Origin: Thermoanaerobaculia bacterium
GTDB lineage: Bacteria > Acidobacteriota > Thermoanaerobaculia > UBA5066
NCBI GenBank assembly: GCA_963816185.1
Contig: CAWFJJ010000028.1
Location: 352,001 to 416,000 of the forward strand
DNA length: 64,000 nucleotides
Direction: 5' to 3'
In this document: piece after piece, positions 43,744-59,392 of the stretch
How the letters are laid out: the number at the start of each line of letters is the position of its first letter
Position numbering within the stretch: position 1 is the first letter of the stretch
The notes under the pieces: model-generated
Database searches by the model: none
What the model saw: the letters and a program-made list of their open reading frames with translations, nothing else
Told to the model about the DNA's origin: nothing
Made by a program: the position numbers and the translations under genes

Positions 43744-44688
43744 ATGGCGAGAATCCGGACAGGAGTCGTGGGATGCGGCTATCTCGGCCGGCACCACGCT
43801 CGGATCCTCACGGAGCTCGCCGACTCCGAGCCCGTCGGCTTCGTCGAGCCGGACGACGCGACGGCGGCCACGATCGAGGCCGCGCACGGTCCGAAAGGAC
43901 TCGCTCGGAGGCCTTCCGTCAAAGAGCTCCTGGGAGCGGGCGCGATGGCGGTCGTGGTGGCGTCTCCGACCTCCACCCACGCCGCGGTGGCGGAAGAGCT
44001 CCTCGCCGGGGGCGCCGACGTCATGGTCGAAAAGCCGATCACGGTCACCCTGGCCGAGGCCGACCGTCTCGTCGCTCTCGCGCGGGCCAAGGGCCGCATC
44101 CTTCAGGTCGGCCACATCGAGCGCTTCAATCCGGCGGTGGCCGCCGTGCGCCCGCTCGTCACGGATGTGAAGTTCATCGAGGCGCACCGGCTCGGGGTCT
44201 TCGTCCCGCGCGCGCTCGACGTGGACGTCGTCCTCGACCTCCTCGTCCACGACCTCGACATCGCGCTCGACCTCGTGGGCAAGCCGGTCACGGAGATCCG
44301 GGCGGTCGGCGTGCCGATCCTGAGCGAGAAGATCGACATTGCCTCGGTGCGCCTTTCCTTCGAGGGCGGGTGCGTGGCGAACCTGACCGCCTCGCGCGTC
44401 TCACAGGACAAGACGCGGAAGTTCCGGTTCTTCCAGCCCGACTGGTACTTCTCGATCGACACTCAGCACCGGGATGTGACGGCATTTCGTCTCGACCGCC
44501 TCAGCGGCCCGCCGCGCATCGTGCCGTGGCCCGTGACGGTCGAGCCCGCGGATCCTCTCACCGCCGAGGACTCCGCGTTCCTGAAGGCCTGCGCGGAGCG
44601 CACCGAGCCGGAAGTGACGGGCGAAGCCGGCCGCGCGGCGCTCAAGCTGGCGCTCGACATTCTCGAGGAGATGGGGCGGGGACGATGA
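43744..44688 (+). CDS. Gfo/Idh/MocA family oxidoreductase (GnnA-like)
   Basis: GVVGCGYLGRHH, VEKP, VGHIERFNPA, LDLLVHDLD, TASRVS. Confidence 0.9.
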   Translation: MARIRTGVVGCGYLGRHHARILTELADSEPVGFVEPDDATAATIEAAHGPKGLARRPSVKELLGAGAMAVVVASPTSTHAAVAEELLAGGADVMVEKPITVTLAEADRLVALARAKGRILQVGHIERFNPAVAAVRPLVTDVKFIEAHRLGVFVPRALDVDVVLDLLVHDLDIALDLVGKPVTEIRAVGVPILSEKIDIASVRLSFEGGCVANLTASRVSQDKTRKFRFFQPDWYFSIDTQHRDVTAFRLDRLSGPPRIVPWPVTVEPADPLTAEDSAFLKACAERTEPEVTGEAGRAALKLALDILEEMGRGR

Positions 44689-45719
44689 AGAGAAAAGGGA
44701 ACAAGAACTCTTTCTTATATACGGCGGCTGCTGATGCAGCCGCCGATAGAAGAAAGTCTTCTCCCCGAATGGTCGATGTCAAGGGCGTGCTTCGCGCGCC
44801 GCGCAGCGGTCGCAGACCCTTGACATCGGCCATTCGGGGAATACGGTCGTCGACCAAGTCTTTGCGGCGCATCGGCCTCATCGGCGGCTCGGGTCTTTAT
44901 TCACTTCCCGGCCTCGAGATCACTCGCGAAATCGGGCTTTCGACGCCCTTCGGCGACCCCTCCGACTCTTTCTTTCTAGGAAGTCTCTCTTCGGTCCCTG
45001 TCGCATTTCTCGCGCGTCACGGACGTCACCATTCGTTCCTGCCTTCCGAGATCAACTACCGAGCGAACGTCTGGGGGTTCAGGAAGCTCGGCTGCTCGTG
45101 GCTTCTCTCGGCCTCGGCCTGCGGCTCGATGAAGGAGTCCTACGCGCCGGCCGACATCGTCCTGCCGGACCAGTTCCTCGACTTGACGAAGCGGCGCGTC
45201 TCGACGTTCTTCGGAGACGGCTGTGCGGCGCACGTGTCGTTCGCGCACCCCGTTTCGGCCGTTCTTCTCGACGCTGTGGAGGCGGCCGCGAAGGCGGAAG
45301 GGGCCGTGTGCCATCGAGGCGGAACGTACGTGTGCATCGAAGGACCCCAGTTCTCGACGAAGGCCGAGTCTCTGCTCTACCGTTCCTGGGGCGCGGACGT
45401 GATCGGGATGACGAACGCCACCGAGGCAAAGCTCTGCCGCGAGGCGGGGATCGGCTATGCGTCGATGGCGCTCGTCACGGACTACGACTGCTGGCACGAG
45501 GAGCAGGCCGCGGTCTCGGTGGAAGCTGTCCTCGACGTCCTGAAAAGAAACGCCGGCACCGCGAATCGCGTCCTCGCGAACGCCGTTCGCCGCCTCGACC
45601 CGGACAGCCCGAGCGACTGCGCGGACGCCCTCGAGTGGGCCGTTCTCACGCCGAGGAACCGGATCAGTCCCGCCGCCTCGAAGCGCCTCGCGCTTCTTCT
45701 GAACAAGGACGAGAGATGA
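44685..45719 (+). CDS. mtnP: S-methyl-5'-thioadenosine phosphorylase, with a repeat-derived N-terminal extension if started at ATG 44685 (alternative TTG 44862)
   Basis: IGLIGGSGLY, TPFGDPSD, RHGRHH, NYRAN, EGPQFST, IGMT, VTDYDCW; ATGA overlap with the upstream gene. Confidence 0.92.
   Translation: MKRKGNKNSFLYTAAADAAADRRKSSPRMVDVKGVLRAPRSGRRPLTSAIRGIRSSTKSLRRIGLIGGSGLYSLPGLEITREIGLSTPFGDPSDSFFLGSLSSVPVAFLARHGRHHSFLPSEINYRANVWGFRKLGCSWLLSASACGSMKESYAPADIVLPDQFLDLTKRRVSTFFGDGCAAHVSFAHPVSAVLLDAVEAAAKAEGAVCHRGGTYVCIEGPQFSTKAESLLYRSWGADVIGMTNATEAKLCREAGIGYASMALVTDYDCWHEEQAAVSVEAVLDVLKRNAGTANRVLANAVRRLDPDSPSDCADALEWAVLTPRNRISPAASKRLALLLNKDER
44706..44840. repeat. Composite palindromic repeat copy 1: hairpin A (44722-44745) plus cruciform B (44762-44840)
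   Basis: A: CGGCGGCTGC-tgat-GCAGCCGCCG. B: TCCCCGAATGGTCGATGTCAAGGG...CCCTTGACATCGGCCATTCGGGGA. Near-identical to 58373-58490. Confidence 0.92.
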
Positions 45720-46726
45720 CCGCACGCCGCATCGTCGTTACCGGGTCCGTCGCCTACGACTACCTGATGACCTTCCCGGGGAAATTCCTCGACGTCGTCA
45801 TCCCCGACCGCATGGACCGCCTCTCGGTGTCGTTCCTCGTGGACTCCATGCGGAAAGTGCGGGGGGGCGTGGCTCCGAACATCGCCTACACGCTCGCGCT
45901 CCTCGGCCTCAGGCCCCTCGTCATGGCGACGGCGGGCGTCGACGCGCTCGATTACAGCCGGTGGCTCTCCGAACAGGGGGTCGACACCTCATCCCTGCAC
46001 ATTTGCGACGATCTTTTCACGGCCTCGTTCTTCGTCTCGACCGACGAATCGCAGAACCAGATCGCGACGTTCTATGCGGGGGCGATGGCGCGGGCGGCGA
46101 CGCTGTCCTTCCGCGAGCTCTCGCCGAGCAGCGTGAGCCTCGCGATCATCGCGCCGAACGCTCCCGAGGCGATGGCGAAATACGCGACGGAGTGCCGCGA
46201 GCTCCACATCGCATTCGCGTACGACCCGAGTCAGCAGGTGGCGCGGCTTTCGGGTGACGAGATTCTCGAGGGGCTGCGGGGCGCGGCGATGCTCATCGCG
46301 AACGAGTACGAGTTCGGCGTCATCGAGCTCAAGACCGGCCTCTCGGAAGCCGCGGTCCTCTCGCACGTGCCGGTTCTCATCGTGACGCGAGGCGCCGAAG
46401 GTTCCACGATCGCGCTCCGGGGCGGCCAGCCGGAGGCTGCCGCCGGCGTGTCGACGTTCCGCATTCCGCCCGCCCGCCTCCGCGGGCCCGCAGTCGATCC
46501 GACGGGCGTGGGAGATGCGTTCCGCGGGGGCCTCCTTGCCGCACGCCACCACGGCCTGCCGTGGGAGGTCGCGGGCCGCGTGGGAAGCGTGGCAGCCGCC
46601 TACTGCCTGGAAGCCCTCGGACCGCAGCCACCGCGGTATGCCGTCGCCGACTTCATCGCGCGTTACGGCGAGAACTTCGGCTCCGAAGGAGCTCACTCGC
46701 GTGTCAGCGACCTCGCGCCGCGGTGA
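45716..46726 (+). CDS. PfkB-family carbohydrate/adenosine kinase
   Basis: VTGSVAYD, GGVAPNIAY, NQIATFYAGAM, DPSQQ, NEYE, VDPTGVGDAFRGG. Confidence 0.92.
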   Translation: MTARRIVVTGSVAYDYLMTFPGKFLDVVIPDRMDRLSVSFLVDSMRKVRGGVAPNIAYTLALLGLRPLVMATAGVDALDYSRWLSEQGVDTSSLHICDDLFTASFFVSTDESQNQIATFYAGAMARAATLSFRELSPSSVSLAIIAPNAPEAMAKYATECRELHIAFAYDPSQQVARLSGDEILEGLRGAAMLIANEYEFGVIELKTGLSEAAVLSHVPVLIVTRGAEGSTIALRGGQPEAAAGVSTFRIPPARLRGPAVDPTGVGDAFRGGLLAARHHGLPWEVAGRVGSVAAAYCLEALGPQPPRYAVADFIARYGENFGSEGAHSRVSDLAPR

Positions 46727-46729
46727 AGC

Positions 46730-46738
46730 TGATACACT
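46730..46738 (+). promoter_or_regulatory. Extended -10 box (TGaTACACT), 10 nt before the ribH ATG
   Basis: TGn-TAnnnT pattern with no SD between it and ATG 46749. Confidence 0.55.
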
Positions 46739-46748
46739 CCTGGGTCCA

Positions 46749-47246
46749 ATGAACGTGATCGAAGGGCACCTTTCCTCGGCGGGCCGGCGCTTCGGCGTCG
46801 TGGCGGCGCGCACGAACGAGCTCGTCGTGTCGCGCCTCCTCGAAGGCGCCCTCGACGCCTTCCGCCGGACCGGTGCTGCCGACGAGGACGTCGTCGTGGT
46901 GCGCGCCCCGGGCGCGTGGGAGCTTCCCCTCACCCTTCGCGATCTCGCGCGCTCGGGCAAGTTCGACGCGCTCGTGGCGCTCGGCGCCGTCGTTCGCGGC
47001 GGCACGCCGCATTTCGAGTACGTGGCGAGCCAGGCGGCGAAAGGTGTTTTCCAGGTCTCCCTCGAGCTCGACCTCCCCGTGGCGCTCGGAGTCCTGACGT
47101 GCGACACGCTCGAGCAGGCGCTCGAGCGCTCGGGCGCCAAGGGCGGGAACAAAGGCTTCGAGGCGGCGATGGCCGCGGTCGAGGCCGCCGATCTCCGGGC
47201 CCGTCTGAAGAAAGCCCCCGCTCGCTCGTCGCGCCCGACACGCTGA
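46749..47246 (+). CDS. ribH: 6,7-dimethyl-8-ribityllumazine synthase
   Basis: PGAWELP, LGAVVRGGTPHFEYV, GVLT, NKGFEAA; lies upstream of nusB. Confidence 0.95.
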   Translation: MNVIEGHLSSAGRRFGVVAARTNELVVSRLLEGALDAFRRTGAADEDVVVVRAPGAWELPLTLRDLARSGKFDALVALGAVVRGGTPHFEYVASQAAKGVFQVSLELDLPVALGVLTCDTLEQALERSGAKGGNKGFEAAMAAVEAADLRARLKKAPARSSRPTR

Positions 47247-47264
47247 GAGCCGGACGGAGGACGC

Positions 47265-47705
47265 GTGAGCGGCCGCCGGCGGAAGTCGCGAGAGCTGGCG
47301 CTTCAGCTCCTCTACCAGAACGACCTCGCAGGGACGCCGCCCGAGGAGATGTTCCAATACACCGAGGAGTACGTCCTCGCGAAACCCGAGGTCCAGGAGT
47401 ACGCCGAACGCCTCGTCCGGGGCACCCTTTCGCGCCGCGACGAGCTGGACGCGAAGCTCTCCGAGCGCTCCGAGCACTGGCGCCTCGGGCGTATGGCCGC
47501 CGTGGACCGAAATCTTCTTCGCCTCGCGCTCTACGAGCTCCTTTATGAAGAGGACACCCCGGACCCCGTCGTGATCGACGAAGCCGTGGAAATCGCGAAG
47601 AAGTTCTCGACGCCGTCCTCGGGGCCGTTCGTGAACGGCGTCCTGGACGGCATCCGCCGCGCCACGTTCGGCCCGCGCGTTCGGAGCGGGGGAGAAAGCG
47701 GATGA
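47265..47705 (+). CDS. nusB: Transcription antitermination factor NusB
   Basis: RRKSRELALQLLY, W...R...VDRNLLRLA, IDEAVEIAKKF, FVNGVLD. Confidence 0.95.
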   Translation: MSGRRRKSRELALQLLYQNDLAGTPPEEMFQYTEEYVLAKPEVQEYAERLVRGTLSRRDELDAKLSERSEHWRLGRMAAVDRNLLRLALYELLYEEDTPDPVVIDEAVEIAKKFSTPSSGPFVNGVLDGIRRATFGPRVRSGGESG

Positions 47706-48598
47706 CGCCTCGGGCGCTGCTTCTCACCCTCCTCTTCGCGTGGGGCGTCCCGGCCGCGGGGCAGGACTCCGGCGAGTGGGCCCGATACAGGCTCGATGGA
47801 CCCGCGCCGTGGCGGTATGCGCAGGCCGTGGAAGCGGCCGGCTATCGCGTCGTGCTCTCTTCGGCGGACGGCAAGACGCTGGAAGCGCGCGTGGAGGTGT
47901 CCGCCGCACCGTTCACGGCGGACGCGCCGTTTCCGCCCGCCCCGTCGACCCTCTCCGCCGAAGCGCGGACGGCGCTCGCCGATCCCCTCGCGGACGATCC
48001 GGACCTCGACTTCCTGTCCGAGAGGCTTCTCGCGGGCTCGAGGACGACGCTCGAGGCCGTCGAACGGGTCATCGCGTTCACGGCGCACCGCGTTCGCTAT
48101 GCGCTGCCGGACGGCTCGCCCGAGACGGCCTCCCGAACGCTCCGCCAGCGCCGCGGCTCGTGCGTGGGACGCTCGCTCCTGGCGGCCGAGCTGCTGCTTC
48201 GCTCCGGGGTTCCGGCCCGGCAGGTGACCGGCATTCTGGCCGCGCAGCGCGCCCGGGAGCTCACTCCGGAGTCGCGCGCCGTGTTCAACGCGGAGCTGGG
48301 CGGCGTGCGGCACCGCTGGATCGAGGTCTTCGTGCCAGGCCTGGGCTGGGTGCCTTCCGATCCGAGCGGGCTCGCGAACACGGTGACGTCGAGGCATCTC
48401 GCGCTCGAAAGGCAGCCCCCCGCCGGTTTTCACGTGGACGTCGCCGGTCGCTCCGCCGAGCTGAAGCGGCCCGTTCTCGAGACCGCCGAAGGCGGCCTGA
48501 CGCTCTACCGGCCGCGCGGGGCGAGCATCGTGGAGGCCGTTGAAGGGGCGCCGCTCGACCCGCGGGCGCTCGCGGCCCCGCCGCCCGCGCGCCGCTGA
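47702..48598 (+). CDS. Secreted transglutaminase-like domain protein
   Basis: Signal peptide; GSCVGRS, HRWIEV and WVPSDP give a Cys-His-Asp triad. Confidence 0.82.
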   Translation: MTPRALLLTLLFAWGVPAAGQDSGEWARYRLDGPAPWRYAQAVEAAGYRVVLSSADGKTLEARVEVSAAPFTADAPFPPAPSTLSAEARTALADPLADDPDLDFLSERLLAGSRTTLEAVERVIAFTAHRVRYALPDGSPETASRTLRQRRGSCVGRSLLAAELLLRSGVPARQVTGILAAQRARELTPESRAVFNAELGGVRHRWIEVFVPGLGWVPSDPSGLANTVTSRHLALERQPPAGFHVDVAGRSAELKRPVLETAEGGLTLYRPRGASIVEAVEGAPLDPRALAAPPPARR

Positions 48599-48634
48599 CG
48601 CCGCGCCTCTCCGTCGTTTACACTCGCCGACTCG

Positions 48635-51190
48635 ATGCAACGCACCGCGACGGCGACCACGAAGGCCGACGAAATCCTCAGGATCGAGGCGAAGTGGCGC
48701 GACCGCTGGGAGGCGGACCGCGCCGCATTCGTGGATACGACGAAGCCCGCGGGGGACGGAACATACCTCCTCGTCATGCTTCCTTATCCCTCGGGCGACC
48801 GCCTGCACGTCGGGCACGCGCGCACATATTTCCTGACCGACGCGCTCCAGCGCTTCCTGCGCCAGACGGGCGTGACCGTGTTCTGCCCGATGGGCTGGGA
48901 CGCGTTCGGCCTGCCTGCCGAGAACTACGCGATCCAGAAGGGCATCCATCCGCGCACCTCCACGCTCGCGAACATCGCGGCCATGAAGGAGCAGTTCCGG
49001 ACGTGGGGCGTTCTTTACGACTGGACGAAGGAAGTCACGACCTGCGAGCCCGAGTACTACCGCTGGAACCAGTGGTTCTTCCTGAGGCTCCTCGAAAAAG
49101 GCCTGGCGGTCCGCAGGAAGGCCGCGGTGAACTGGTGCCCGTCGTGCGAGACCGTCCTCGCGAACGAGCAGGCCGAGGGCGGCGTCTGCGACCGGTGCGG
49201 CACTGCGGTGGTGCCCCGCGAGCTCGAGCAGTGGTTCCTGAAGATCACCGACTACGCCGAGCGCCTGCTGGACGGCCTCGACACGCTCCGCAAATGGCCC
49301 GAGAAGGTCGTCACGATGCAGCGCAACTGGATCGGCAAATCCACGGGCGCCGATCTGGATTTCGCGATCCCGAAGCTGAACGAGACGGTCCGCGTCTTCA
49401 CGACGCGCCCGGACACCGTCTTCGGCGCCACGGCGCTCATCCTCGCGCCCGAGCACGCGCTCGTCCCGCGCCTTCTCGAGGGCCATCCGAAGCGGGCCGA
49501 GCTGGAGGCCTGGGTCAATTCCGTGCGCAGCCAGGAGCGCATCGTCCGCGAGGCCGAGGGAGCCGAGAAGGACGGCCGCGACACCGGCCGCACGGCGATC
49601 AACCCCTTCACGGGGAAGGAAGTGCCCGTGTGGCTCGCGAACTTCGTCATCGCCGACTACGGCACGGGCGCGCTCATGGCGGTACCCGCGCACGACACGC
49701 GCGACTTCGAGTTCGCGAAGAAGTACGGCATCCCCATCGTCAGGGTGATCGAAGAGGGGAAGAGAGAAAAGAAGGAAGATTTGCTTAGAAAGGAAGAGGG
49801 GGAGGGCGCAGCGGCGGCCAGCGGCGACGCGGCTTTGACAGGCCTTCCATACACGGGCGAGGGCCCGCTCATTGCCTCCGGACCATTCACAGGAATCTTC
49901 TCTTCTCTTGCCCGAGAATTCATCGCAGCCGATGCCGCGAATCGCGGCATCGGCGGGCCGCGCGTGCGGTATCGGCTCCGCGACTGGCTCATTTCGCGTC
50001 AGCGCTACTGGGGCACGCCGATTCCCATGATCCACTGCGAGAAGGATGGCTGGGTGAGTGTGCCGGAGAAGGACCTGCCGGTCGTGCTGCCGCCTGACGC
50101 GCCGTTCACGGGCAAGGGCGGCAATCCGCTCGAGAAGGTCGCTTCGTTCGTCCAGACGACGTGCCCTTCGTGCGGAGGCCCGGCCAGGCGCGAGACGGAC
50201 ACGATGGACACGTTCGTGGACTCGTCCTGGTATTTCCTCCGGTACATTGACCCGAAGAACGGCGCGGCGCCCTTCGATCCCGCAATCGTGAGGGAATGGG
50301 CGCCGGTCGACCAGTACATCGGCGGCATCGAGCACGCGATCCTCCACCTCCTGTACGCGCGGTTCTTCACCCGCATCCTGAAGGACCTCGGCCTCGTGAC
50401 GTTCGAGGAGCCGTTTTCGGCTCTCTTCAACCAGGGCATGATCACGCGCCTGTCCCCGACGGGCCGCGTGGAGAAAATGTCGAAGTCGCGGGGCAACTCG
50501 GTGTCTCTCGACTCGCTCATCGCGGAGAAGGGAGCCGACGCCGTGCGCGCGTTCGTCCTCTTCCTCGGGCCGCCGGAGAAGGACGCCGAGTGGAGCGACG
50601 AGGGCATCAGCGGGCCGGAGCGCTTCCTCTGGCGCGTGCGGGGCGCCGTGGACCGGTTCCTCGCGACGGGCGCCGATCCGCAAGCACAGCCGGCGGCGGC
50701 CGACACGCCCGCGGCGCGCGCGCGCCACATGGCGATCAAGAAGGTCACGGAGGACTTCCGGGCGTTCTCGTTCCACACGGCCGTGGCGCACCTCATGGAG
50801 CTGCTCAACGGCGCGGCGGTCCTCGTGAACGACGCGGGCGCGGACGCGGGGGAGACCGCGACGACGCTGCGCACGCTCGTCACGCTCCTCCATCCCATCG
50901 CGCCGCACCTGTCGGAGGAGCTGCACGAGAGGATGGGCGGCACGAAGAGCCTCCTTGCCTCGGGCTGGCCGACCTACGATCCGGCGCTCGCCGAGATGGA
51001 AGAGGCTTCGATCGCCGTGCAGGTGTCGGGGAAGGTGCGTGCCGAGATCAAGCTGAGAAGAGGATCTTCCGAGAAAGAGGCGCTGGCCGCCGCCCAGGCT
51101 GAGGCGGCGCTCTCGCGGTGGCTGGAAGGAAAGCAGATCGTCAAAACCATCTGGGTTCAGGATCGACTGTTGAACATCGTCGTGCGATGA
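48635..51190 (+). CDS. leuS: Leucine--tRNA ligase
   Basis: [59 protein letters not shown]. Confidence 0.97.
49751..49800. repeat. Module C purine tract inside leuS (encodes [16 protein letters not shown])
   Basis: Purine tract containing GAAGATTTGCTTAGAAAG; shared with ileS and with the reverse complement of 58538-58575. Confidence 0.75.
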
Positions 51191-51194
51191 GGAG

Positions 51195-51896
51195 ATGCTG
51201 CTTTCGGATTTTTCTGATATGCGGCGGCGGCTGATGCAGCCGCCGATGGATGGCAACGTGCCCTCGGCTGGCCGGAGTCAAGGGTCTTCGACCGCTACGC
51301 GGCGCGCGAAGCGCGCCCTTGACACCGACCAGCCGAGAGCTATCCCTCTCTCTTTTTCCTTCAAAGAAATCTCTCTTTCTTCTCTTTCCTTTCTTGTCTT
51401 TCTTGCCTTCGCTGCCTCTTCGTCCGGCTGCGGGTACACGCTCGTGGGGACCGGGTCGAGCGCGGTGCCCGTCGGCGTCAAGACGGTATACGTGCCGACG
51501 TTCATCAATGAGACGACGGTCGTGGGCCTCGAGCAGCGCCTCACGGACGCCGTCATTCGCGAGCTTTCCGCGCGTGGCCGTCTCAAGCCCGTGTCGGACA
51601 GGGGGGCGGCGGATTCGGAGCTGTCCGGGCAGCTGACATCCGCGTCGGTCGCCCCCGTCCGCTTCGACGCGAACGGAATCGCCGTCGAATATCAGGTGAC
51701 CGTTACCGGAAAGATCGTTCTCACCGAGAAGGCCACCGACAAGCCCATCTTCTCCGAGCCCGCTTACCTGTTCCGGCAGCCATACACCGTGCCGTCGAGC
51801 GCCAGCTCGTATTACGACCGAGAGCGCGAGGCCATCGAGGCGATGGCCCGCCCCTTCGCGCAGAACCTCGTCACGACGATCCTGGAAGGATTCTGA
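51195..51896 (+). CDS. lptE: LPS-assembly lipoprotein LptE with a repeat-derived long signal region
   Basis: SGCGY at 51423-51437, 'VYVPTFINET..GLEQRLTDAV', position after leuS. Confidence 0.85.
   Translation: MLLSDFSDMRRRLMQPPMDGNVPSAGRSQGSSTATRRAKRALDTDQPRAIPLSFSFKEISLSSLSFLVFLAFAASSSGCGYTLVGTGSSAVPVGVKTVYVPTFINETTVVGLEQRLTDAVIRELSARGRLKPVSDRGAADSELSGQLTSASVAPVRFDANGIAVEYQVTVTGKIVLTEKATDKPIFSEPAYLFRQPYTVPSSASSYYDREREAIEAMARPFAQNLVTTILEGF
51211..51410. repeat. Composite palindromic repeat copy 2: A (51222-51245), inverted B (51263-51337), pyrimidine tract C
   Basis: TTCTGATATGCGGCGGCGGC-tgat-GCAGCCGCCG; GTCAAGGG...CCCTTGAC with the loop reverse-complemented relative to copies 1 and 4; TTCAAAGAAATCTCT. 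Confidence 0.9.
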
Positions 51897-52089
51897 AAAA
51901 GGCGCGAGGAAACGTATCGGTTTCGCGGCGGCTGGTTTCTTGCCGATATCGAGTCTCACTCACATTCAGGATACAATGGCAGATGTTGAGAGGGAGTGAC
52001 GTCGCTCGTCTCCCTCCGTCGCGGGATTGCTGTCGCGTATTTGGGTAGCCAAACGGCGCGCGACCCGCTCCCCCTCATAGGGGGTCGTC

Positions 52090-54571
52090 TTGCGCGATAT
52101 CACGCTGCGAGAGCGGGCCGACGAATCGATTGAGAAGCTCGTCCGCGCCGTGGAGCAGGCGAAGAACGTCATCCTCATGACAGACCCGAACGGGACCATC
52201 ACGTACGTCAATCCCGCTTTCGAGGAGATCTACGGCTATTCCATGCAGGAGGCGCTCGGCAAGACGCCACGGATCCTGAAGAGCGGCCAACACGACAAGG
52301 ATTTCTACAAACGTTTCTGGCAGAGGCTGCTGGCCGGCGAAACGGTGCGAGAGCAGTTCGTCAACAAGACCCGAGATGGCCGGCTCGTCACCGTGGAAGG
52401 TCTCGTCAGTCCCGTCCTCGATGCCCAGGGGCAGCGCAGCGGTTTCATCGCCGTGCAGGAGGACATCACCGAGCGAAAGCGCTCCGAAGCGCGGATTCTG
52501 CAGCTCAACCGCCTCCTCAGGACGATCTCCGAGGTCAATCAGCTCATCGTCCGTGCGCAGGACCGCGCGGCTCTTCTCTCGGAGGCCTGTCGTGTTCTCG
52601 TGGACCACGGCGGCTTCGAGTTGGTCTGGATCGGTTTCGTCGACGCCGCGTCACAGGTTGTCGTTCCCGCGGCGCGAGCAGGTGTACGCCCCGAGTACCT
52701 CGCTGGAATCGTCGTCCGGTGCGACGACACGCCGGAGGGGCGAGGACCGGTGGGCACGGCGATCCGGACGGGACGGTTCGCCGTCGTGGAAGACGTCGAA
52801 ACGGATCCGTCGGCTGCTCCCTGGCGCGAGCGAATGCTCGCGTACGGGTTCAAGACCGTCGCGGCTTTTCCTATTCGGAGCGGGGGCGCCGTGAGGGGCG
52901 CTCTCGGGGTGTACGCCTCGAAAGCTGTTGAGATCGGCCACGAGGAAACGACTCTCCTCGACGAGCTCGCGCACGACATCGGTTTTGCGCTCCAATCGCT
53001 CGAGAACCGCGACGAGCGGCGTCGGGCCGAGGAGGCCCTGGCAAGAAGCGAGCTCTACTTTCGATCTCTCTTCGAGAACGCACAGGACATCATTACGGTC
53101 ATCGACGCCGGGGGACTGATCCTCTTCGAGAGCCCGTCCGTCGAGCGGATCATGGGGCTTCCGCCGGACGCGTACGTTGGAAAGAGCGCGTTCGAGTTCG
53201 TCCATCCCGACGACGTGGCCGCCGTTCAGGCCGCCCTGCAGCGCGCCTCCGCCAACCCGGGGCTGCCCCAGTCCGCACTGTTTCGCTTTCGCCACGCCGA
53301 CGGCTCCTGGAGGACCCTCGAGGGGATCGGCAGCCTCCTGACGGGCGAATCTTCTTTCCGGTTCGTGGTGAACTCCCGTGACGTGACCGAAAGCCGCGCC
53401 CTGGAGCAGCAGCTTCGGCAGGCACAGAAGATGGAGGCCGTCGGGCGGCTTGCGGGCGGAGTGGCGCACGACTTCAACAACCTGCTGACCGCGATCCTGG
53501 GCTATTCGGACCTGCTGGCGGGGCAGGCCGGCGAGGGGAGCCCGCTGCGGGAATCCATCGAGGAGATCCGAAAAGCGGGGGAACGGGCCGCTTCGCTCAC
53601 TCGGCAGCTCCTGGCCTTCAGCCGCAAGCAGGTTCTGGAGCCCGTGGTGCTGCGGTTGAACGACCTGGTCGAAAACGTCGAGAAAATGCTGCGGCGCGTG
53701 ATCGGAGAGGACGTACGGCTGGTCACGCGTCTGGGCGACTCCGTGGGCAACGTCCGGGCGGATCCGGGACAGCTCGAGCAGGTGATCGTGAACCTCGCCG
53801 TCAACGCCCGTGACGCCATGCCGAAGGGCGGCACGCTGACGATCGAGACGGCCGATGTCGAGCTGGACGGCGTCTACGCGCAGAGACACGCCATGGTTCC
53901 TCCCGGCCGCTACACGATGCTGGCGGTCAGCGACACGGGCGTCGGGATGGATGCGGCCACGCAGGAGAGGATCTTCGAGCCCTTCTTCACGACGAAGGAG
54001 AAGGGCAAGGGCACGGGCCTCGGGCTCTCGATGGTATACGGCATCGTCAAGCAGTCAGGGGGATACATCTGGGTCTACAGCGAACCGGGGAAGGGGACGA
54101 CCTTCAAGGTGTATCTGCCGACGGTCGGGGAAGGCGGTCTCGGATCTTCCAGCGAGATCCGCGGAGTTTCATCCGGCCGTCGGAGCCGAAACGGTCCTGC
54201 TCGTCGAGGACGAGCCGGCGATCCGCACTCTCGCCCGCCGGGTTCTCGTGGAGCGCGGCTACCGCGTGCTCGAGGCGGGCAGCGGGACGGACGCCCTGGA
54301 ACAGGTCCGCGCAGAAAAGGGGCCGATTCACCTGCTCCTCACGGACCTCGGGATGCCGGACATGGGCGGAATGGAGGTCGCATCCGGCGTGCAAGAGCTT
54401 CATCCAGACATCCGCGTGCTCTTCATGTCCGGGTATACCGACGACGGGGTGGTCCGCAACGGGCTCCTCGAACCGAGACGGGCTTTCCTGCAGAAGCCCT
54501 TCACGCCGTCCGCCCTTGCGCGCAAGGTGCGCGAGGTGCTGGACGCGCCTGAGCAAGGCTCGGCCGCCTGA
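52090..54571 (+). CDS. PAS-GAF-PAS hybrid histidine kinase with receiver domain (CckA-like); frameshift near 54150
   Basis: [39 protein letters not shown]; the receiver (VLLVEDE, LLTD, QKPF) is in ORF 53855..54571. Confidence 0.9.
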
Positions 54572-54575
54572 GCAC

Positions 54576-55124
54576 TCACTTCCCGGCAGGGCGGGGGCTG
54601 CCTGTTTCCAGAAAGTTCTTGAGCCTTCCCACCTGCTCGCCGACCACTTCGTCCACGATCGGCGCGATCTTCTCGAATCCTCCCGCCATATAGCCGCCGA
54701 TGCCGTACGTGACCACGAGCTTCGTGCCATCTTCGGCTTTCGCGAGGTCCCACGTCATGCTCCCGGCGAGCCCCAGGCCCTGAAGGGGGCCGATGGCGCC
54801 GGTCATGCGCAGCGCCTTGCCCGGGCCTGCGTAGACGACGGTCATGTGCTGGACCCCGCCGCCGTCCGGGAACCTCTCGCAAAAGCAGCCGCCCGGAACG
54901 GCGGCGATCGAGAGGTTCCTGGCATCGTGTGAAAACGTGTGCTCCGGATTCCACCAGCTCCCTACCTTCGCGGTGAGCGTGTCGTAGACGACTCCGGGGG
55001 TGGCCTTGATCGCGACTTCGTGCTTCACGGCGAAACCGCTCGGGCCGACGCTCATGACTTCCGCGGAAAGGGGCGCGGAGAGAAGCGCCACCGCGCAGAC
55101 CAGAATGGATGGAAGTTCTTTCAT
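54576..55124 (-). CDS. Secreted SRPBCC/START-fold protein
   Basis: Signal peptide, 'WWNPEHTFS...GGCFCE...LRMTGAIGPLQ'. Confidence 0.75.
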   Translation of the reverse strand: MKELPSILVCAVALLSAPLSAEVMSVGPSGFAVKHEVAIKATPGVVYDTLTAKVGSWWNPEHTFSHDARNLSIAAVPGGCFCERFPDGGGVQHMTVVYAGPGKALRMTGAIGPLQGLGLAGSMTWDLAKAEDGTKLVVTYGIGGYMAGGFEKIAPIVDEVVGEQVGRLKNFLETGSPRPAGK

Positions 55125-55166
55125 TTCTGATATTCGGGGCTGCTGATGCAGCCCCGATAGTAGAAA
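55124..55166. repeat. Repeat copy 3: hairpin A only (55134-55157)
   Basis: TTTCTGATAT-TCGGGGCTGC-tgat-GCAGCCCCGA-TAG. Confidence 0.85.
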
Positions 55167-55183
55167 CTCTTCTCGCGAGAGCT

Positions 55184-55459
55184 TTATTTCGCGGCGGCTT
55201 TTTTCGCCTTGTTCACGGTCTTCGAAATCCGCGATTTCAGGCGGGACGCCGTCTTCCTGTGGAGGACGCCTTTGCGGACGGCGACGTCGAGCTCGGAGAC
55301 CGCGTTCGAGAGGAAGCTGCCGACCTTTTCGGCGTCGGTTTCCGCCGTCCTGCGGAGATTCTTCACGACGTTGCGGACCTGGGTGACGACGGAGCGGTTG
55401 CGGGCCCGGCGGCGGTCGCTCTGCGCGGCGCGCTTCTTGGCTTGCTTGGTGTTCGCCAT
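55184..55459 (-). CDS. rpsT: 30S ribosomal protein S20
   Basis: MANTKQAKKR...RRARN...KGVLHRKTASRLKSR. Confidence 0.96.
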   Translation of the reverse strand: MANTKQAKKRAAQSDRRRARNRSVVTQVRNVVKNLRRTAETDAEKVGSFLSNAVSELDVAVRKGVLHRKTASRLKSRISKTVNKAKKAAAK

Positions 55460-55492
55460 GTGGTTTCGATGAGGCCTTTCTCTGGAGAGCGT

Positions 55493-56341
55493 TCAGCGGG
55501 AATCGCCGCCGAGGGACTTGAGGCGCTGACGCGCGCTCTTGGCCTCGTCGGAGCCGGGGAACTGGTTGACGACGAAGTTCAGCTCGACCATGGCCTGGGC
55601 CTTCTCGCCGAGCTCGAGATGGGCGATTCCCTTTTTGAGGTGCGCAGCCGGGGCTTTGTCGCTCTGCGGATACGTGCGAAACAGCTTGTCGAACGAGGCG
55701 ATCGCCTCGCGCGGCTTCTTCTGCGCGGACCAGCACTCTCCGGCCCAGTAGAGGGCGTCGTCGGAGAGATCGGTGCGCGGGAACTTCTCGGCGTAGTCCT
55801 CGAAACCCTGCCGCGCGAGATCGTATCGGCCGCGCTGATAGTCGGCCGTAGCCTGCGCGAAGAGGTCCGCCGGCGTGATACCTCCCCCGCGCGGGCCCGC
55901 GGCCGCCGGGACGGGACCGGCAGAGGACGGAGGCGGACCCTGCGGACCCGGAGAGGTCGCCGGCGGGGCGATCACGGCCCCGGCGAAGGGATGCCCCTGC
56001 GTCTCGGCGATCTGCTGGGAGAGCTGCGTGAGGCGCCGGTTCGCATCCTCGAGCTTCCCGGCGAGGGCCTGCATCTCGCGCGTCAGGTCGTCGAACCTCG
56101 TGCCCAGATCGGCGTTCGAGCGGAGGAGCGTCTGCGCCTGCTTGGCCAGGGTCTCGTTCAGCTTCGCAACCTCCTCCTTGGAGGAAGACTGCTTCGAGAC
56201 GGCGTCGACTTTCTTCTCGACCGTCGAAAGGTGCTGGTGAAGGCCGTCGATGTCGCTGCCGCTGACGCAGCCGGTCACCGCCGCGAGAAGTCCCGCGGTC
56301 AGGGCAAGGCGGCCGGCTCGCGTGACGCGCGGGCGGGTCAC
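55493..56341 (-). CDS. cpoB: Tol-Pal system protein YbgF/CpoB
   Basis: Lipoprotein signal (VTGC), coiled coil, TPR (ALYWAGE, YPQSDK, AHLKKG); lies after pal. Confidence 0.9.
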   Translation of the reverse strand: MTRPRVTRAGRLALTAGLLAAVTGCVSGSDIDGLHQHLSTVEKKVDAVSKQSSSKEEVAKLNETLAKQAQTLLRSNADLGTRFDDLTREMQALAGKLEDANRRLTQLSQQIAETQGHPFAGAVIAPPATSPGPQGPPPSSAGPVPAAAGPRGGGITPADLFAQATADYQRGRYDLARQGFEDYAEKFPRTDLSDDALYWAGECWSAQKKPREAIASFDKLFRTYPQSDKAPAAHLKKGIAHLELGEKAQAMVELNFVVNQFPGSDEAKSARQRLKSLGGDSR

Positions 56342-56886
56342 TTCGCGGTGACGACGAAGTGGGCGCGGCGGTTCTTCTGCCACGAGTCTTCGTCGTGCCC
56401 GGTCGCGAAGGGGCGCTCCTTGCCGTAGGACACGGTCTTGATCCGCCCCGCGTCCACGCCGAGGGAGACCAGGTAGTCCTTCGCGGCGTTCGCGCGGCGA
56501 TCGCCGAGCGCGAGGTTGTACTGCTCGGTGCCGCGCTCGTCGCAATGACCCTCGATCGTGAACTGTACGCTCGAGTACTTCTTCAGCCACGTCGCGTTCG
56601 CGGCGAGCACGTCGCGGGCGTCGGGGCGTATGTCGGCCTTGTCGTAGTCGAAGAACGCGGGCTTCAGGTAGCTCGAGATCTCGGCGAACGACCCCGCGAG
56701 CTCATCGGTGACCCTCGGCGTCGGCTGCGGAGCCGGCGGGGGAGTCTCCACGGTCACGACGGTGGGTGTCGAGACGGGTTCGGGAGTCGGCTCTGGGGCC
56801 GGCATGGGTTTTGGCTTCGGACTGCAGGCGACGATGAATGCGAGAGCGACGAGCGTGAGCGAACCGACCTTGAGGGACTGCTTCAT
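56338..56886 (-). CDS. pal: Peptidoglycan-associated lipoprotein
   Basis: IVAC lipobox, FFDYDK, IEGHCDERGTEQYNLALGDRRA, SYGKERP, NRRA. Confidence 0.96.
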   Translation of the reverse strand: MKQSLKVGSLTLVALAFIVACSPKPKPMPAPEPTPEPVSTPTVVTVETPPPAPQPTPRVTDELAGSFAEISSYLKPAFFDYDKADIRPDARDVLAANATWLKKYSSVQFTIEGHCDERGTEQYNLALGDRRANAAKDYLVSLGVDAGRIKTVSYGKERPFATGHDEDSWQKNRRAHFVVTAK

Positions 56887-56950
56887 GGAATCGAGCCTCC
56901 GTTGACGGGGGGATTGAGGGCGCCGGACGGCGACCATCCCGTCGGCGGCG

Positions 56951-58369
56951 TCATTCTAGCGTCTTGATCCACGAGGGGGAAAAATTGTTCCCGGAAGAGG
57001 TCACGATGCGGGGCGTGCCGCCGCCGTCCGCGTTTCCGACGGCGATCTGGGTCGAGCTGCCGCGCTGCACATCCCAGGCGATCTTCGATCCGTCCGGCGA
57101 CCACGTAGGGCTCTCGTGGGCGCCCGGCCCGCTCGAAATCTGCACGGTTCGCCCGGTTGCGAGGTCCATGACACAGATCTGGAAATCGCCCTCGTTCCGG
57201 CACGCGAACGCCATCCGCCCCCCGTCCGGCGAGAAAGTCGCCTCGTCGTTCCAGTTCCCGGCGAGCGAGACCCGACGCACGTTCGCACCCTCGAGGTCCA
57301 TCATGAAAATCTGGGGCGTGCCCTGGCGGTTCGACGTGAACGCCAGCTCGCGCCCGTTCGGGGACCACCGGGGCGTCGAGTCGATCGCCACGTTCTCGGT
57401 GAGCCGTTTCAGGTTCGAGCCGTCCGTCTGGACCGTGAAGATCTCGGTGTTCCCCTTCACGCTTCCGCAGAAGGCGATCGTCTTGCCGTCCGGGGAGAAG
57501 GACGGGGACGCGTTGAGCTGCGTCGGGACGCGAATCTGACGCTTGTCGCCTCCGTCCTTCCCGATGAGCCACAGGCCCGGCGTATCCTTCTCATACGACT
57601 GGTACACGATCTTCGCCCCGTCGGGAGACCAGTCCGGCGCGAGCGACAGCGTGTTCGAATAGGTGATCCGGCGCTGGTTGTCGCCGTCGAAGTCCATCGT
57701 GTAGATCTCCTTCACGACGTTCTTCCCCGCGACCCGGTCGCGGTCGGACGAAAAGGCGATCTTCGTCAGGAACGGCCCGGGTTTGCCCGTGAACTGGCGT
57801 ACGAGGTCGCTCGCGAGCGTGTGCGCGATGCGGCGCGCCGCCCGCATCTCGCCGGAGTACTTTCTGCCCATGATGGACTTGAGCGTGCTGAGATCCCAGA
57901 GAGTCGCCTCGACGACGACGCCCCCGCCGTCCGGCGCGAGGTGCGTATCGAGCAGGAACTGCGCCGACGTGGCTTTCCACGCGTCGCCCTCTTCGCGATT
58001 TTGGGGCGGGCGCATCCCCTTCGGGTAAAGAGCCGGATCGGCCACGACGAAGACGCCGGAGCCGGCGAGGTCGTCGGTGAGCGTCGTGTAGAAAGGATCC
58101 ACGGCCCGCGTCTGAAGGTCCGGCGAGATCGGCGCGACCGTCATCGGAATCGCCAGCGGCCGGCGTGCTCCGGTGGCTCCGGTGAGCGTGAGATCGATGT
58201 TCGAGGGCTGCGAGATCCCGGACATGGTCGGAACGGGCTTCGGCGCCTGGCCGAGAAGGGGCGTCGCCGCCAGAGCGAACAAGAGCGCTACGAGCGAGGA
58301 CCGGGGAGAGATATTTCTGATATTCGGGGTTCCTGATGCAGCCGCCCGGGGAAGGGATTCTTTTCTCAT
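56951..58369 (-). CDS. tolB: Tol-Pal beta-propeller protein TolB
   Basis: TolB_N (DDL..SG.F, RRIAH, F.TKIAF) plus six (W/F)SP(D/N)G-type repeats; lies upstream of pal. Confidence 0.93.
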   Translation of the reverse strand: MRKESLPRAAASGTPNIRNISPRSSLVALLFALAATPLLGQAPKPVPTMSGISQPSNIDLTLTGATGARRPLAIPMTVAPISPDLQTRAVDPFYTTLTDDLAGSGVFVVADPALYPKGMRPPQNREEGDAWKATSAQFLLDTHLAPDGGGVVVEATLWDLSTLKSIMGRKYSGEMRAARRIAHTLASDLVRQFTGKPGPFLTKIAFSSDRDRVAGKNVVKEIYTMDFDGDNQRRITYSNTLSLAPDWSPDGAKIVYQSYEKDTPGLWLIGKDGGDKRQIRVPTQLNASPSFSPDGKTIAFCGSVKGNTEIFTVQTDGSNLKRLTENVAIDSTPRWSPNGRELAFTSNRQGTPQIFMMDLEGANVRRVSLAGNWNDEATFSPDGGRMAFACRNEGDFQICVMDLATGRTVQISSGPGAHESPTWSPDGSKIAWDVQRGSSTQIAVGNADGGGTPRIVTSSGNNFSPSWIKTLE

Positions 58370-58593
58370 ATGCGGCGGCTGCTGATGCAGCCGCCGAATA
58401 CTTGAAATCTGCTTCCCGAATGGCCGATGTCAAGGGCGCGCTTCGCGCGCCGCGGAGCGGTCGCGGACCCTTGACATCGGTCATTCGGGGAATACGGCCT
58501 CTCTGCAAAATCTCTTCTCTTCCTCCTTTCCTTTCTTCCACTTCTAAGAAAATCCTCTTCTTCTCTTCTTCTTTGTCTTTCAAAGAATTCCCC
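58314..58593. repeat. Composite palindromic repeat copy 4: degenerate A', A (58373-58396), B (58415-58489), pyrimidine tract C (58500-58593)
   Basis: Same A and B sequences as copy 1; C contains TTCTAAGAAAATC and TTCAAAGAATTC. Confidence 0.92.
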
Positions 58594-58594
58594 T

Positions 58595-59392
58595 TCACTG
58601 GAATTTCAGATGCACGCCGAGCGACTCGTTCCGGTAATCCGGCGGGAGCGGCGGGAGCGGGTTCGCGGCGTAGACGGCGCGCGCCGCGGCGCGGTCGTAG
58701 TAGCTCACGCCGGAGGACGAGTCGATCTTGACGTCCGTCACCTGTCCGGAGCGCAGGATGCGGAACGAGATGACGCAGCTCGTGCCTTCGGCCGACTCCG
58801 GCTTGAACCAGTTCGCGCCGATGAGCGAGAGGAGCTGCTCCACGTAGTACGAGAAGGGGAAGTCGGCGTCGAACGAGGTGACGGATGCCCCGAAGGAGAC
58901 ACCCTCGCCCGAGGTGCTGCCGTTCGCGGCGCCCGCGGCGCTCGGGAGCTCGAGAGCGGGCCCGCCGGGCTTCGCGGCGCCCGGAGCGGGCTTCGGTTTC
59001 TCGGGCTTCGCGTGCTTCTTCGGCTCGGGCATCGCTTTCGCGGAGGGCTGGACTTTTTCCGTGGGCTTCTCGATGACGGGCTTTGCCTTCGGCGCCGGCG
59101 CCGGCTCAGCGGGCGCCGCCACGGGGGCGGGAGCGGGCGGGGCCTGGGGCCGGCCGAGGGAGGCCGGGCTCACGACACGGACGGGCAGGGACATCGGGAC
59201 GAAGACCGGCGCCTTGCGCGGCTTGCCGATGAGGAGAACGAGCGCGAGGAAGGCCGCGTGGCCGAGGATCGAGACGGCGACCGTCAGGGACCGCGGGGGA
59301 AGGCCGGTGTGCGATCGCCGCGCGAGGATGTCCGAGACGGTGGGCGCGGGAAGAGCCTCCGCGCGCGCGGTCACCGTGCTCATCGCCGTCAT
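58595..59392 (-). CDS. tolA: TolA/TonB family energy transducer
   Basis: TM helix with SxxxH (SILGH), Pro/Lys-rich linker, C-terminal SSG..YD.AA.RAV..ANPLPPLP. Confidence 0.85.
   Translation of the reverse strand: MTAMSTVTARAEALPAPTVSDILARRSHTGLPPRSLTVAVSILGHAAFLALVLLIGKPRKAPVFVPMSLPVRVVSPASLGRPQAPPAPAPVAAPAEPAPAPKAKPVIEKPTEKVQPSAKAMPEPKKHAKPEKPKPAPGAAKPGGPALELPSAAGAANGSTSGEGVSFGASVTSFDADFPFSYYVEQLLSLIGANWFKPESAEGTSCVISFRILRSGQVTDVKIDSSSGVSYYDRAAARAVYAANPLPPLPPDYRNESLGVHLKFQ

Follow-up and report, generated by a model that had tools for sequence, protein, structure and literature searches.

The pneumococcal BOX repeat is built of A, B and C boxes. Repetitive extragenic palindromes (REPs) are defined by a GTAG or CGTC tag and also occur inside genes, many of them in genes for replication and repair (Di Nocera et al., PMC3733652, in the portion of the article available). 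Miniature inverted-repeat transposable elements, or MITEs, are known from Coxiella (PMC5896051, in excerpt), and Rickettsia palindromic elements (RPEs) are presented in the accessible part of PMC10969869 as the extreme case of in-frame fusions produced by intragenic MITEs. Here we describe a repeat family found in a metagenome-assembled genome (MAG) of a Thermoanaerobaculia bacterium (Acidobacteriota; 5.09 Mb, 67% GC, 30 contigs, 94.9% complete; hereafter G000), starting from a stretch of 64,000 nucleotides (nt) of its contig C28 (G000:C28:352001-416000; hereafter the window). The family is made of two hairpin modules, A and B. A first-pass annotation of the window had placed hairpin A at four loci and B at three of them, and we find them as described at the re-checked coordinates (Table 1). 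What is new is a genus-specific family that behaves like RPEs, with a core that inverts in place and no visible transposase.

The modules are repeated well beyond the window. A profile for A, built from five window copies, matched 49 non-overlapping copies in G000 (nhmmer, E<1e-3), and a profile for B, built from three copies, matched 48. A and B together are a repeat family, with copy numbers far beyond chance. Their copies cluster into 51 loci, comprising 28 A+B units, 10 A+B units with the B core on the other strand, 3 A-A-B, 1 A-B-A (inverted), 3 solo A and 6 solo B. Conservation extends from a few T's before TTCTNATAT to ~30 nt past CCCTTGAC, at GGGGAATA(T/C), and these limits give an A+B unit of ~130-145 nt. 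Contig C14 duplicates part of C24 with near-identical flanks (C14:32974 ≈ C24:152012; C14:41659 ≈ C24:143337), either because the assembly is redundant or because the bin contains a second strain; since C14 repeats two C24 loci, the locus count is inflated by two and the distinct G000 loci number ~49. Two copies (C24:129959-130118 and C25:499780-499928) have in common an extra GC-rich segment (...CCGGCCTGATTGGACGCGGGGG...) that takes the place of A's 3' part and B's left arm, as though a further repeat had been inserted there in a nested fashion.

We consider it likely that A and B are non-autonomous hairpin DNA modules, a repeat family of one genus of uncultured Thermoanaerobaculia, resembling RPEs, REPs and MITEs, which has spread to ~50 loci per genome, is lost by deletion and is translated where it lies in open reading frames (ORFs). 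Under this reading, A and B would usually travel as one A+B unit, some copies multiplying to that number of loci while others are deleted. Copies would survive where they are harmless, either as short spacers at gene boundaries or inside ORFs when in frame and free of stops. The in-frame copies would lengthen N-terminal (signal-peptide) regions and C-terminal tails or insert in internal loops, and they could supply start codons through the ATG of (C/T)ATATG, the ATG of the A loop or the TTG of the B sequence TTGACA. The hairpin may be what the copying process needs, and the modules are perhaps selfish, not useful.

The clearest comparative case for translation lies outside the window, in a polymerase gene of the DnaE type with PHP, finger, HHH_6 and OB domains. 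A variable stretch there is bounded by two conserved anchors, which 21 of the 28 examined loci contain. This stretch ranges from 36 to 303 nt, and in 20 of 21 genomes its length is divisible by three and it has no stop. It measures 36-42 nt where nothing is inserted, 60-81 nt where a P arm (belonging to a second family, described below) is read as DFLEG, and 135-156 nt where a P-interior-Q unit is present with Q read as PSKKS; units with A/B bring it to 231 nt in G006, 255 nt in G008 and 303 nt in G000. The open frame runs through the match to give 1232 amino acids (aa) in G006 and 1101 aa in G008. Elsewhere in G000, the KdsB ORF (CTP_transf_3, residues 2-210) and likewise a radical-SAM ORF extend through a copy without meeting a stop before it, and PMT_2-like and DUF7379-CHAT ORFs are open across a copy; an ORF around C24:143337 is open on both sides of its copy, has no Pfam match and is not counted as a named internal case. 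For G000 as a whole, the frame of the downstream gene is stop-free within the element in 23 of 46 pairs, while the remaining two frames are so in 26 of 92 (Fisher p=0.015). The proposal, made when the repeat was first noticed, that it adds sequence to proteins is borne out by the KdsB read-through and by the frame kept at the DnaE-type site; translation of A/B copies inside ORFs, with the addition of peptide that this would entail, is thus supported by the pattern of open frames.

The two modules have well-defined structures. In RNAalifold analysis of 30 copies from 10 genomes, A folds as a 9-bp invariant hairpin with fixed single-stranded flanks, and B folds as a three-way junction of ~85 nt, in which a 22-bp outer stem surrounds a pair of invariant mini-hairpins (5 and 4 bp). 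On the consensus structure, pairing holds in 98.0% of cells. The B outer stem covaries, with 12 pairs changed on both sides as against 5.7±1.2 in shuffles (0 of 500 reach 12) and 2-6 in slid controls. Orthologous copies are 81% identical (1670 aligned positions), next to identities of 92.5%, 94.6% and 78% at first, second and third codon positions, so that the sequence drifts near neutrally and pairing is kept. Both boxes are present in 44 of the 48 G000 copies of B, and the arm cells of these copies comprise 944 Watson-Crick pairs among 1056, 33 G·T, 20 A·C and 59 others. With G·T and A·C nearly equal in number, there is no indication that only one strand acts as a functional RNA.

In G000 the B core is flipped relative to A in 10 of 41 units. 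The first-pass annotation had taken inverted B as a sign that modules are mixed and matched, a view that an orthologous locus does not support: between G007 (L102) and G000 (C24:152012), the arms and flanks align and the 31-nt core is reverse-complemented, with 2 differences. An inverted core between unchanged arms means that the orientation of B relative to A changes in place, making a separate insertion of the module unnecessary. The flip would most likely come about by recombination or template switching between the B arms. Possible likenesses of B and P/Q to attC sites and invertons were considered and set aside; a 31-nt segment seems too short for recombinase-driven inversion.

The distribution of the family is patchy, both among genomes and among sites. 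A+B DNA is matched in 16 of 24 same-genus genomes (1 to 42 matches each) and has no match in the other 8, while 5 of 16 genomes of other genera have one marginal match each (E 3.6e-5 to 7.1e-4), a tally that includes the unpublished G025. At mtnP, where 29 loci were examined and 23 of them contained the anchor, A+B occurs only in G000 and G007, and at lptE only in G000 and G008 among 26 loci. Upstream of tolB, an element is present in 2 of 17 assessable relatives (L011 and L022), as B-A; the remaining assessable relatives have a purine-rich spacer ending GATTTCT-TTG/ATG-AAAGG, with the tolB start inside it. In G007, 33 clusters lie in 30 loci taken from that genome, and 27 of 32 clusters could be mapped to G000 by both flanks (84-93% flank identity), 12 of these 27 being occupied in G000 too. 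Among ten unoccupied sites aligned between the two genomes, two G000 sites hold remnants, namely B's outer end at C28:~77600 and half of A at C24:~411750, and others have a different purine-rich/TTCTTAGAA leader. The remnants and the patchy occupancy indicate that both gain and loss have occurred and that an 'empty' site is not always one that was never occupied.

Several observations weigh against a mobile, translated family. The DnaE-type gene of G000 (C24:120500-127500, L125) consists of two overlapping ORFs of 761 and 520 aa, where relatives have a single ORF of ~1000-1340 aa, and the gene may therefore be broken there by a frameshift or misassembled. The frame test in G007 shows the same trend as in G000 (11 of 25 against 15 of 50) and is not significant (p=0.30), and both frame tests rest on a crude home-made gene caller. 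The covariation of the B stem could partly mirror the amplification of subfamilies. Empty orthologous sites do exist in relatives. Several of them arose by deletion, with remnants left behind, and are not virgin sites, and the 10 comparisons between G007 and G000 sites showed no target-site duplication. With no transposase, clear terminal inverted repeat or target-site duplication, the case for mobility rests on copy number and patchy distribution. Finally, reversed A ends in ...CATATCAGAA, and its ATC lies in frame just before a typical signal peptide both in tolB and in a lipoprotein gene at C29:80871.

This last point bears on the genes in the window that have a repeat at their 5' end, all three of which the first-pass annotation had described as open and in frame with the repeat. 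This holds through the whole of A+B at mtnP and lptE; at tolB it holds through A and a degenerate second copy, A', and fails through B and C (C being a pyrimidine tract that had been named as a third module). The mtnP frame is open from position 44685, where an ATG overlaps the upstream stop. A TTG past the repeat, at 44862, is in frame as well and gives MRRIGLIGGSG, and a further in-frame TTG lies inside the TTGACA of the window's first B copy; in G007, the in-frame TTG nearest the conserved N-terminus of MtnP is the one in the TTGACA of B. The lptE frame has in-frame ATG codons at 51195, 51219, 51234 (in the loop) and 51246 and a GTG at 51258, and no in-frame start between the repeat and the lipobox Cys codon at 51429; in both G000 and G008, in-frame ATG and GTG codons lie only in or before A. 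At tolB, the frame is open to 58429, and the sole canonical start giving a full signal peptide is the CATATG of A (58369), with A' then forming part of a 42-residue signal peptide. The idea that A or its flank supplies ATGs thus stands for lptE (51219, 51234) and tolB (58369), and the credible canonical starts of these two genes lie only in A.

The leuS-lptE junction of relatives offers a further view of how N-terminal regions are read. Between the leuS stop and the lipobox Cys codon lie anything from 38 to 167 nt, a distance that is ≡2 mod 3 in 23 of 25 relatives, which indicates that a start overlapping the leuS stop (GTGA/ATGA) is in use and that inserts of ~100 nt are translated. At the junctions L038-L062, such a GC-rich insert of ~100 nt, which we call 'D' (a P..Q unit), lies between the overlapping start and the LptE signal peptide. 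Its length varies while the frame is kept in those 23 of 25, so LptE probably carries a long translated N-region there. No copy of 'D' was found in G000 (nhmmer, E≤0.01).

The strongest competing explanation is that the 5' repeats at mtnP, lptE and tolB are an untranslated leader and that translation starts downstream of them, at TTG 44862 in mtnP and at ATC or ATA in tolB and lptE. We regard this as possible and somewhat unlikely. In its favour, mtnP keeps its TTG 15 nt past B, the tolB start lies past the element in L011 and L022, and the ATC of reversed A is placed as a start would be in tolB and in the C29:80871 lipoprotein gene. Yet the 57 codons that precede the lipobox Cys of lptE in G000 are free of ATG, GTG and TTG, as are the corresponding 45 codons in G008, the constant phase between the leuS stop and this Cys in relatives is what translated inserts would give, and a leader would leave the internal and C-terminal cases unexplained.

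A second alternative to a mobile family concerns what the repeats do for the host. Copies sit within core operons, in agreement with the initial placement of the repeat at operon junctions, including the housekeeping pairs thrS|infC, trpS|scpA, scpB|rluB and leuS|lptE. Together with stems kept by compensatory change and with the 12 of 27 mapped loci common to two species, these positions would suit cis-acting RNA or DNA elements of the host, comparable to REPs and their mosaics, that are kept by selection, for example as mRNA stabilisers or processing sites, terminators or attenuators, or sites for a nucleoid protein. Most of the data point away from such a function, and we find it improbable. 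Flanking genes have the strand context of the genome background, convergent gene ends show no excess of copies, and among co-directional contexts in G000 the orientation with respect to transcription is ~18 forward and ~13 reverse. This even orientation and background context, along with the eight congeners lacking a match and the near-neutral divergence, which is like that of third codon positions, argue against a strand-specific host function; the flipping of the B core, the copies inside ORFs and the lack of a clear strand asymmetry between G·T and A·C mismatches count against it as well. Two narrower roles were rejected, one as a terminator (no U-run follows either hairpin, and convergent gene ends are not enriched) and one as a promoter read from the TTGACA of B (the -10 positions are not conserved, judged by eye only). 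As a separate observation, thrS (C30:220479-223352) has A/B units on both sides with their A ends inward, and infC, downstream of thrS, has no in-frame ATG, GTG or TTG past the element.

We found little that could identify how a mobile family of this kind would be copied. The Y1/RAYT domain PF01797, typical of REP-associated tyrosine transposases (RAYTs), has 0 hits in G000 in a search that matched 6 of 14 control genomes. Within the genus it occurs in 4 of 29 genomes (G014, G018, G020 and G044), of which two have no A/B match, one has 4 and one was outside the A/B search, and it has no hit in the high-copy genomes G006, G007, G008 and G012 (53-88% complete). A is flanked on its 5' side by a conserved TTTCTNATAT(G/T) and on its 3' side by GATAG, and neither is the GTAG/CGTC tag of REPs. 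The one candidate for a terminal inverted repeat is a 7-nt pair, GATATTC...GAATATC, seen only in the T variant of A, and conservation stops a few bases beyond either side. A transposon bounded by inverted A copies was considered and rejected, as the two cases inspected enclose thrS and scpA-scpB with no transposase, and a replication-strand bias of A was likewise set aside (its orientation matches the GC-skew sign in 31 of 49 copies; Mann-Whitney p=0.33). The HUH/RAYT mover proposed in the first-pass annotation, by which A would be a REP moved by a RAYT (HUH/Y1, IS200/IS605 type), would account for the short GC-rich hairpin of A with its fixed flanks, for its tandem and inverted doublets (A-A-B, A-B-A) and for the weak tendency to follow skew, but is very improbable given the PF01797 results, flanks of ATAT(G/T) and GATAG where the available portion of PMC3733652 gives GTAG/CGTC, and a skew association that is not significant.

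Searches for an existing description of the family were negative. Rfam gave 0 matches at gathering scores in the 64-kb window, and at E up to 10 the interval 58280-58620 returned only hairpin noise of the miRNA/snoRNA kind (best 19 bits, against gathering scores of 50-94). Nothing specific was found in the literature on repeats in Acidobacteria or Thermoanaerobaculia. Both results accord with the earlier suggestion of an undescribed family.

The pyrimidine tract C does not belong to this family. At locus 4 (tolB), 'C' is the complement of the native purine-rich spacer between a TonB/TolA-like gene and tolB, which relatives without A/B have too; at locus 2 (lptE) it is coding sequence, for ...PFKEI... 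and for the LptE signal peptide as far as the lipobox Cys codon (51429-51431), and the signal-peptide sequence is again present in relatives without A/B. The core motif of C is TTC(TAA|TTA|AAA|TTT)GAA. Together with its complement, TTCTAAGAA occurs 337 times in G000, compared with ~4 estimated from composition, and the 12-mer TTTCTTAGAAGG occurs 149 times, compared with 2 for a reversed control. All 24 of the 24 same-genus genomes have this 12-mer, at 21-210 copies each, as against 0 of 16 from other genera.

These motifs are the arms of a second family, P/Q, in which inverted arms of ~20 nt (...GATTTCTTAGAAGGTGAAGAGGG / CCCTCTTCACCTTCTAAGAAATC...) surround GC-rich interiors, as at C1:117667-117778. 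Defining a P..Q pair as motif P followed by its complement Q within 30-320 nt, strict motifs give 72 P..Q against 2 QP, 10 PP and 4 QQ, and looser motifs give 176 P..Q, 15 QP, 31 PP and 24 QQ, some of them chance hits in coding sequence. The units have a median length of ~100 nt and fold much more stably than shuffles (median z -3.4). Interiors at different sites show no relationship, apart from 4 of 72 that match another one. The C motif lies within 100 nt of 23 of 51 A/B loci, compared with 121 of 2602 other spacers (Fisher p=7.5e-17), and 3 of 176 P..Q pairs enclose an A/B unit. Given the origin of both 'C' tracts in native spacer or coding sequence and the existence of a separate P/Q family, C is not a module of the A/B element, as had first been proposed, and is instead an arm of this wider family; it is a frequent neighbour of A/B or perhaps a preferred landing place. 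The P/Q family is less easily placed among known systems and deserves a study of its own.

A bolder idea, which we offer as a speculation with a low chance of being right, would join the two families. A, B and the P/Q arms might all be transposase-less, 'coding-compatible' hairpin DNA, made by hairpin formation or template switching during replication, whose fixed parts are stop-free (DFLEG / PSKKS / MRRLLMQPP...) and so able to colonise the starts and ends of core genes and the surface loops of their proteins, with P/Q perhaps built on the spot from local sequence. If this were true, such elements would create new start codons and signal-peptide N-regions, and P/Q would represent a new way of making palindromes.

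Within the window (Table 1), Pfam matches place the four A/B loci in the following surroundings. Locus 1 lies between a GFO/IDH/MocA oxidoreductase gene and a PNP_UDP_1 phosphorylase gene (mtnP-like); locus 2, with its core inverted, between the genes for LeuRS and LptE; and locus 3, an A alone, between the genes for ribosomal protein S20 and an SRPBCC-like protein. Locus 4 follows a TonB/TolA-like gene and, on the gene strand, reads B-A-A' before TolB, Pal (OmpA family) and a CpoB-like TPR protein. The B copies at 44762-44846 and 58413-58497 are 91% identical over 93 nt.

Table 1 Repeat modules and adjoining features in the window (positions counted from the first letter of the window).
Feature	Position	Strand	Description
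Module A, copy 1	44711..44750	+	TTTCTTATAT flank, 10-bp GC stem, TGAT loop, GATAG tail
Module B, copy 1	44762..44846	+	GTCAAGGG / CCCTTGAC boxes, a long outer stem and, in the 31-nt core, two small hairpins
mtnP-like phosphorylase	44862..45719	+	Read from TTG 15 nt past B; ATG 44685-44687 also in frame via A+B
Module A, copy 2	51211..51250	+	In-frame lptE ATGs at 51219 (GATATG) and 51234 (hairpin loop)
Module B, copy 2	51262..51338	+	Core inverted relative to A
First-pass 'C', locus 2	51340..51431	+	Q-type arm TTCAAAGAA at 51360-51368; pyrimidine tract 51340-51410
Module A alone	55124..55166	+	Between rpsT stop (55184-55186, minus) and ATG (55122-55124, minus) of SRPBCC-like exported protein
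Degenerate module A'	58314..58350	+	In tolB frame if start is ATG 58369
Module A, copy 4	58362..58401	+	CATATG is first canonical start of tolB ORF (56951-58369, minus)
Module B, copy 4	58413..58497	+	
First-pass 'C', locus 4	58500..58593	+	TTCTAAGAA at 58542-58550, TTCAAAGAA at 58579-58587

Two further features of this region were noted. A purine-rich tract with GATTTGCTTAGAAAGG lies at 49751-49816, inside leuS (48635-51190), and is 73% identical to window positions 41863-41928; by arithmetic it is in frame in LeuRS, where it may be a P-type in-frame insert within the region of the editing domain. Along C28, GC skew turns from mostly positive to negative at ~400-440 kb, that is, in the right part of the window and beyond, and a replication terminus or origin may lie near the window.

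In-frame palindromic repeats in core genes have so far counted as a peculiarity of Rickettsia and some other reduced genomes, and their likely presence in a free-living, GC-rich soil and peat lineage would be an independent occurrence. The DnaE-type site offers a clean comparative series from no insert to 303 nt, and the family as a whole amounts to a natural experiment on how far proteins tolerate inserted peptide and on the origin of start codons and signal-peptide N-regions. For annotators of such MAGs, start calls beside the repeats are unreliable. The missing transposase and the in-place inversion of the core turn the copying mechanism into a testable question.

Compared with known systems, A/B shares with REPs and their mosaic assemblies (bacterial interspersed mosaic elements, BIMEs) short GC hairpins, high copy number, positions in operon spacers, mosaics with other motifs and a copy number that varies among relatives; it differs in having neither a RAYT nor the GTAG/CGTC tag and in its module B, an 85-nt three-way junction. 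Like the MITEs ERIC, BOX and Coxiella QMITE, A/B is a small, non-autonomous, structured and modular repeat, and intragenic in-frame fusions are described for MITEs in the accessible part of PMC10969869. In contrast to MITEs, it has no convincing terminal inverted repeat, shows no target-site duplication and comes with no parent insertion sequence that we could find. RPEs are the closest known phenomenon. They differ from A/B in host, since A/B belongs to a free-living Acidobacteriota lineage of 67% GC; with such a phylum and GC content, sequence homology to RPE families would not be expected. Moreover, A/B is a two-module unit with an invertible core and is mostly intergenic. The likeness, which is one of description only and for RPEs follows the portions of the literature cited above, is nonetheless extensive: in both, palindromic repeats of ~100-150 bp lie between genes and in ORFs, where they are in frame and add, or in A/B would add, peptide to the protein.

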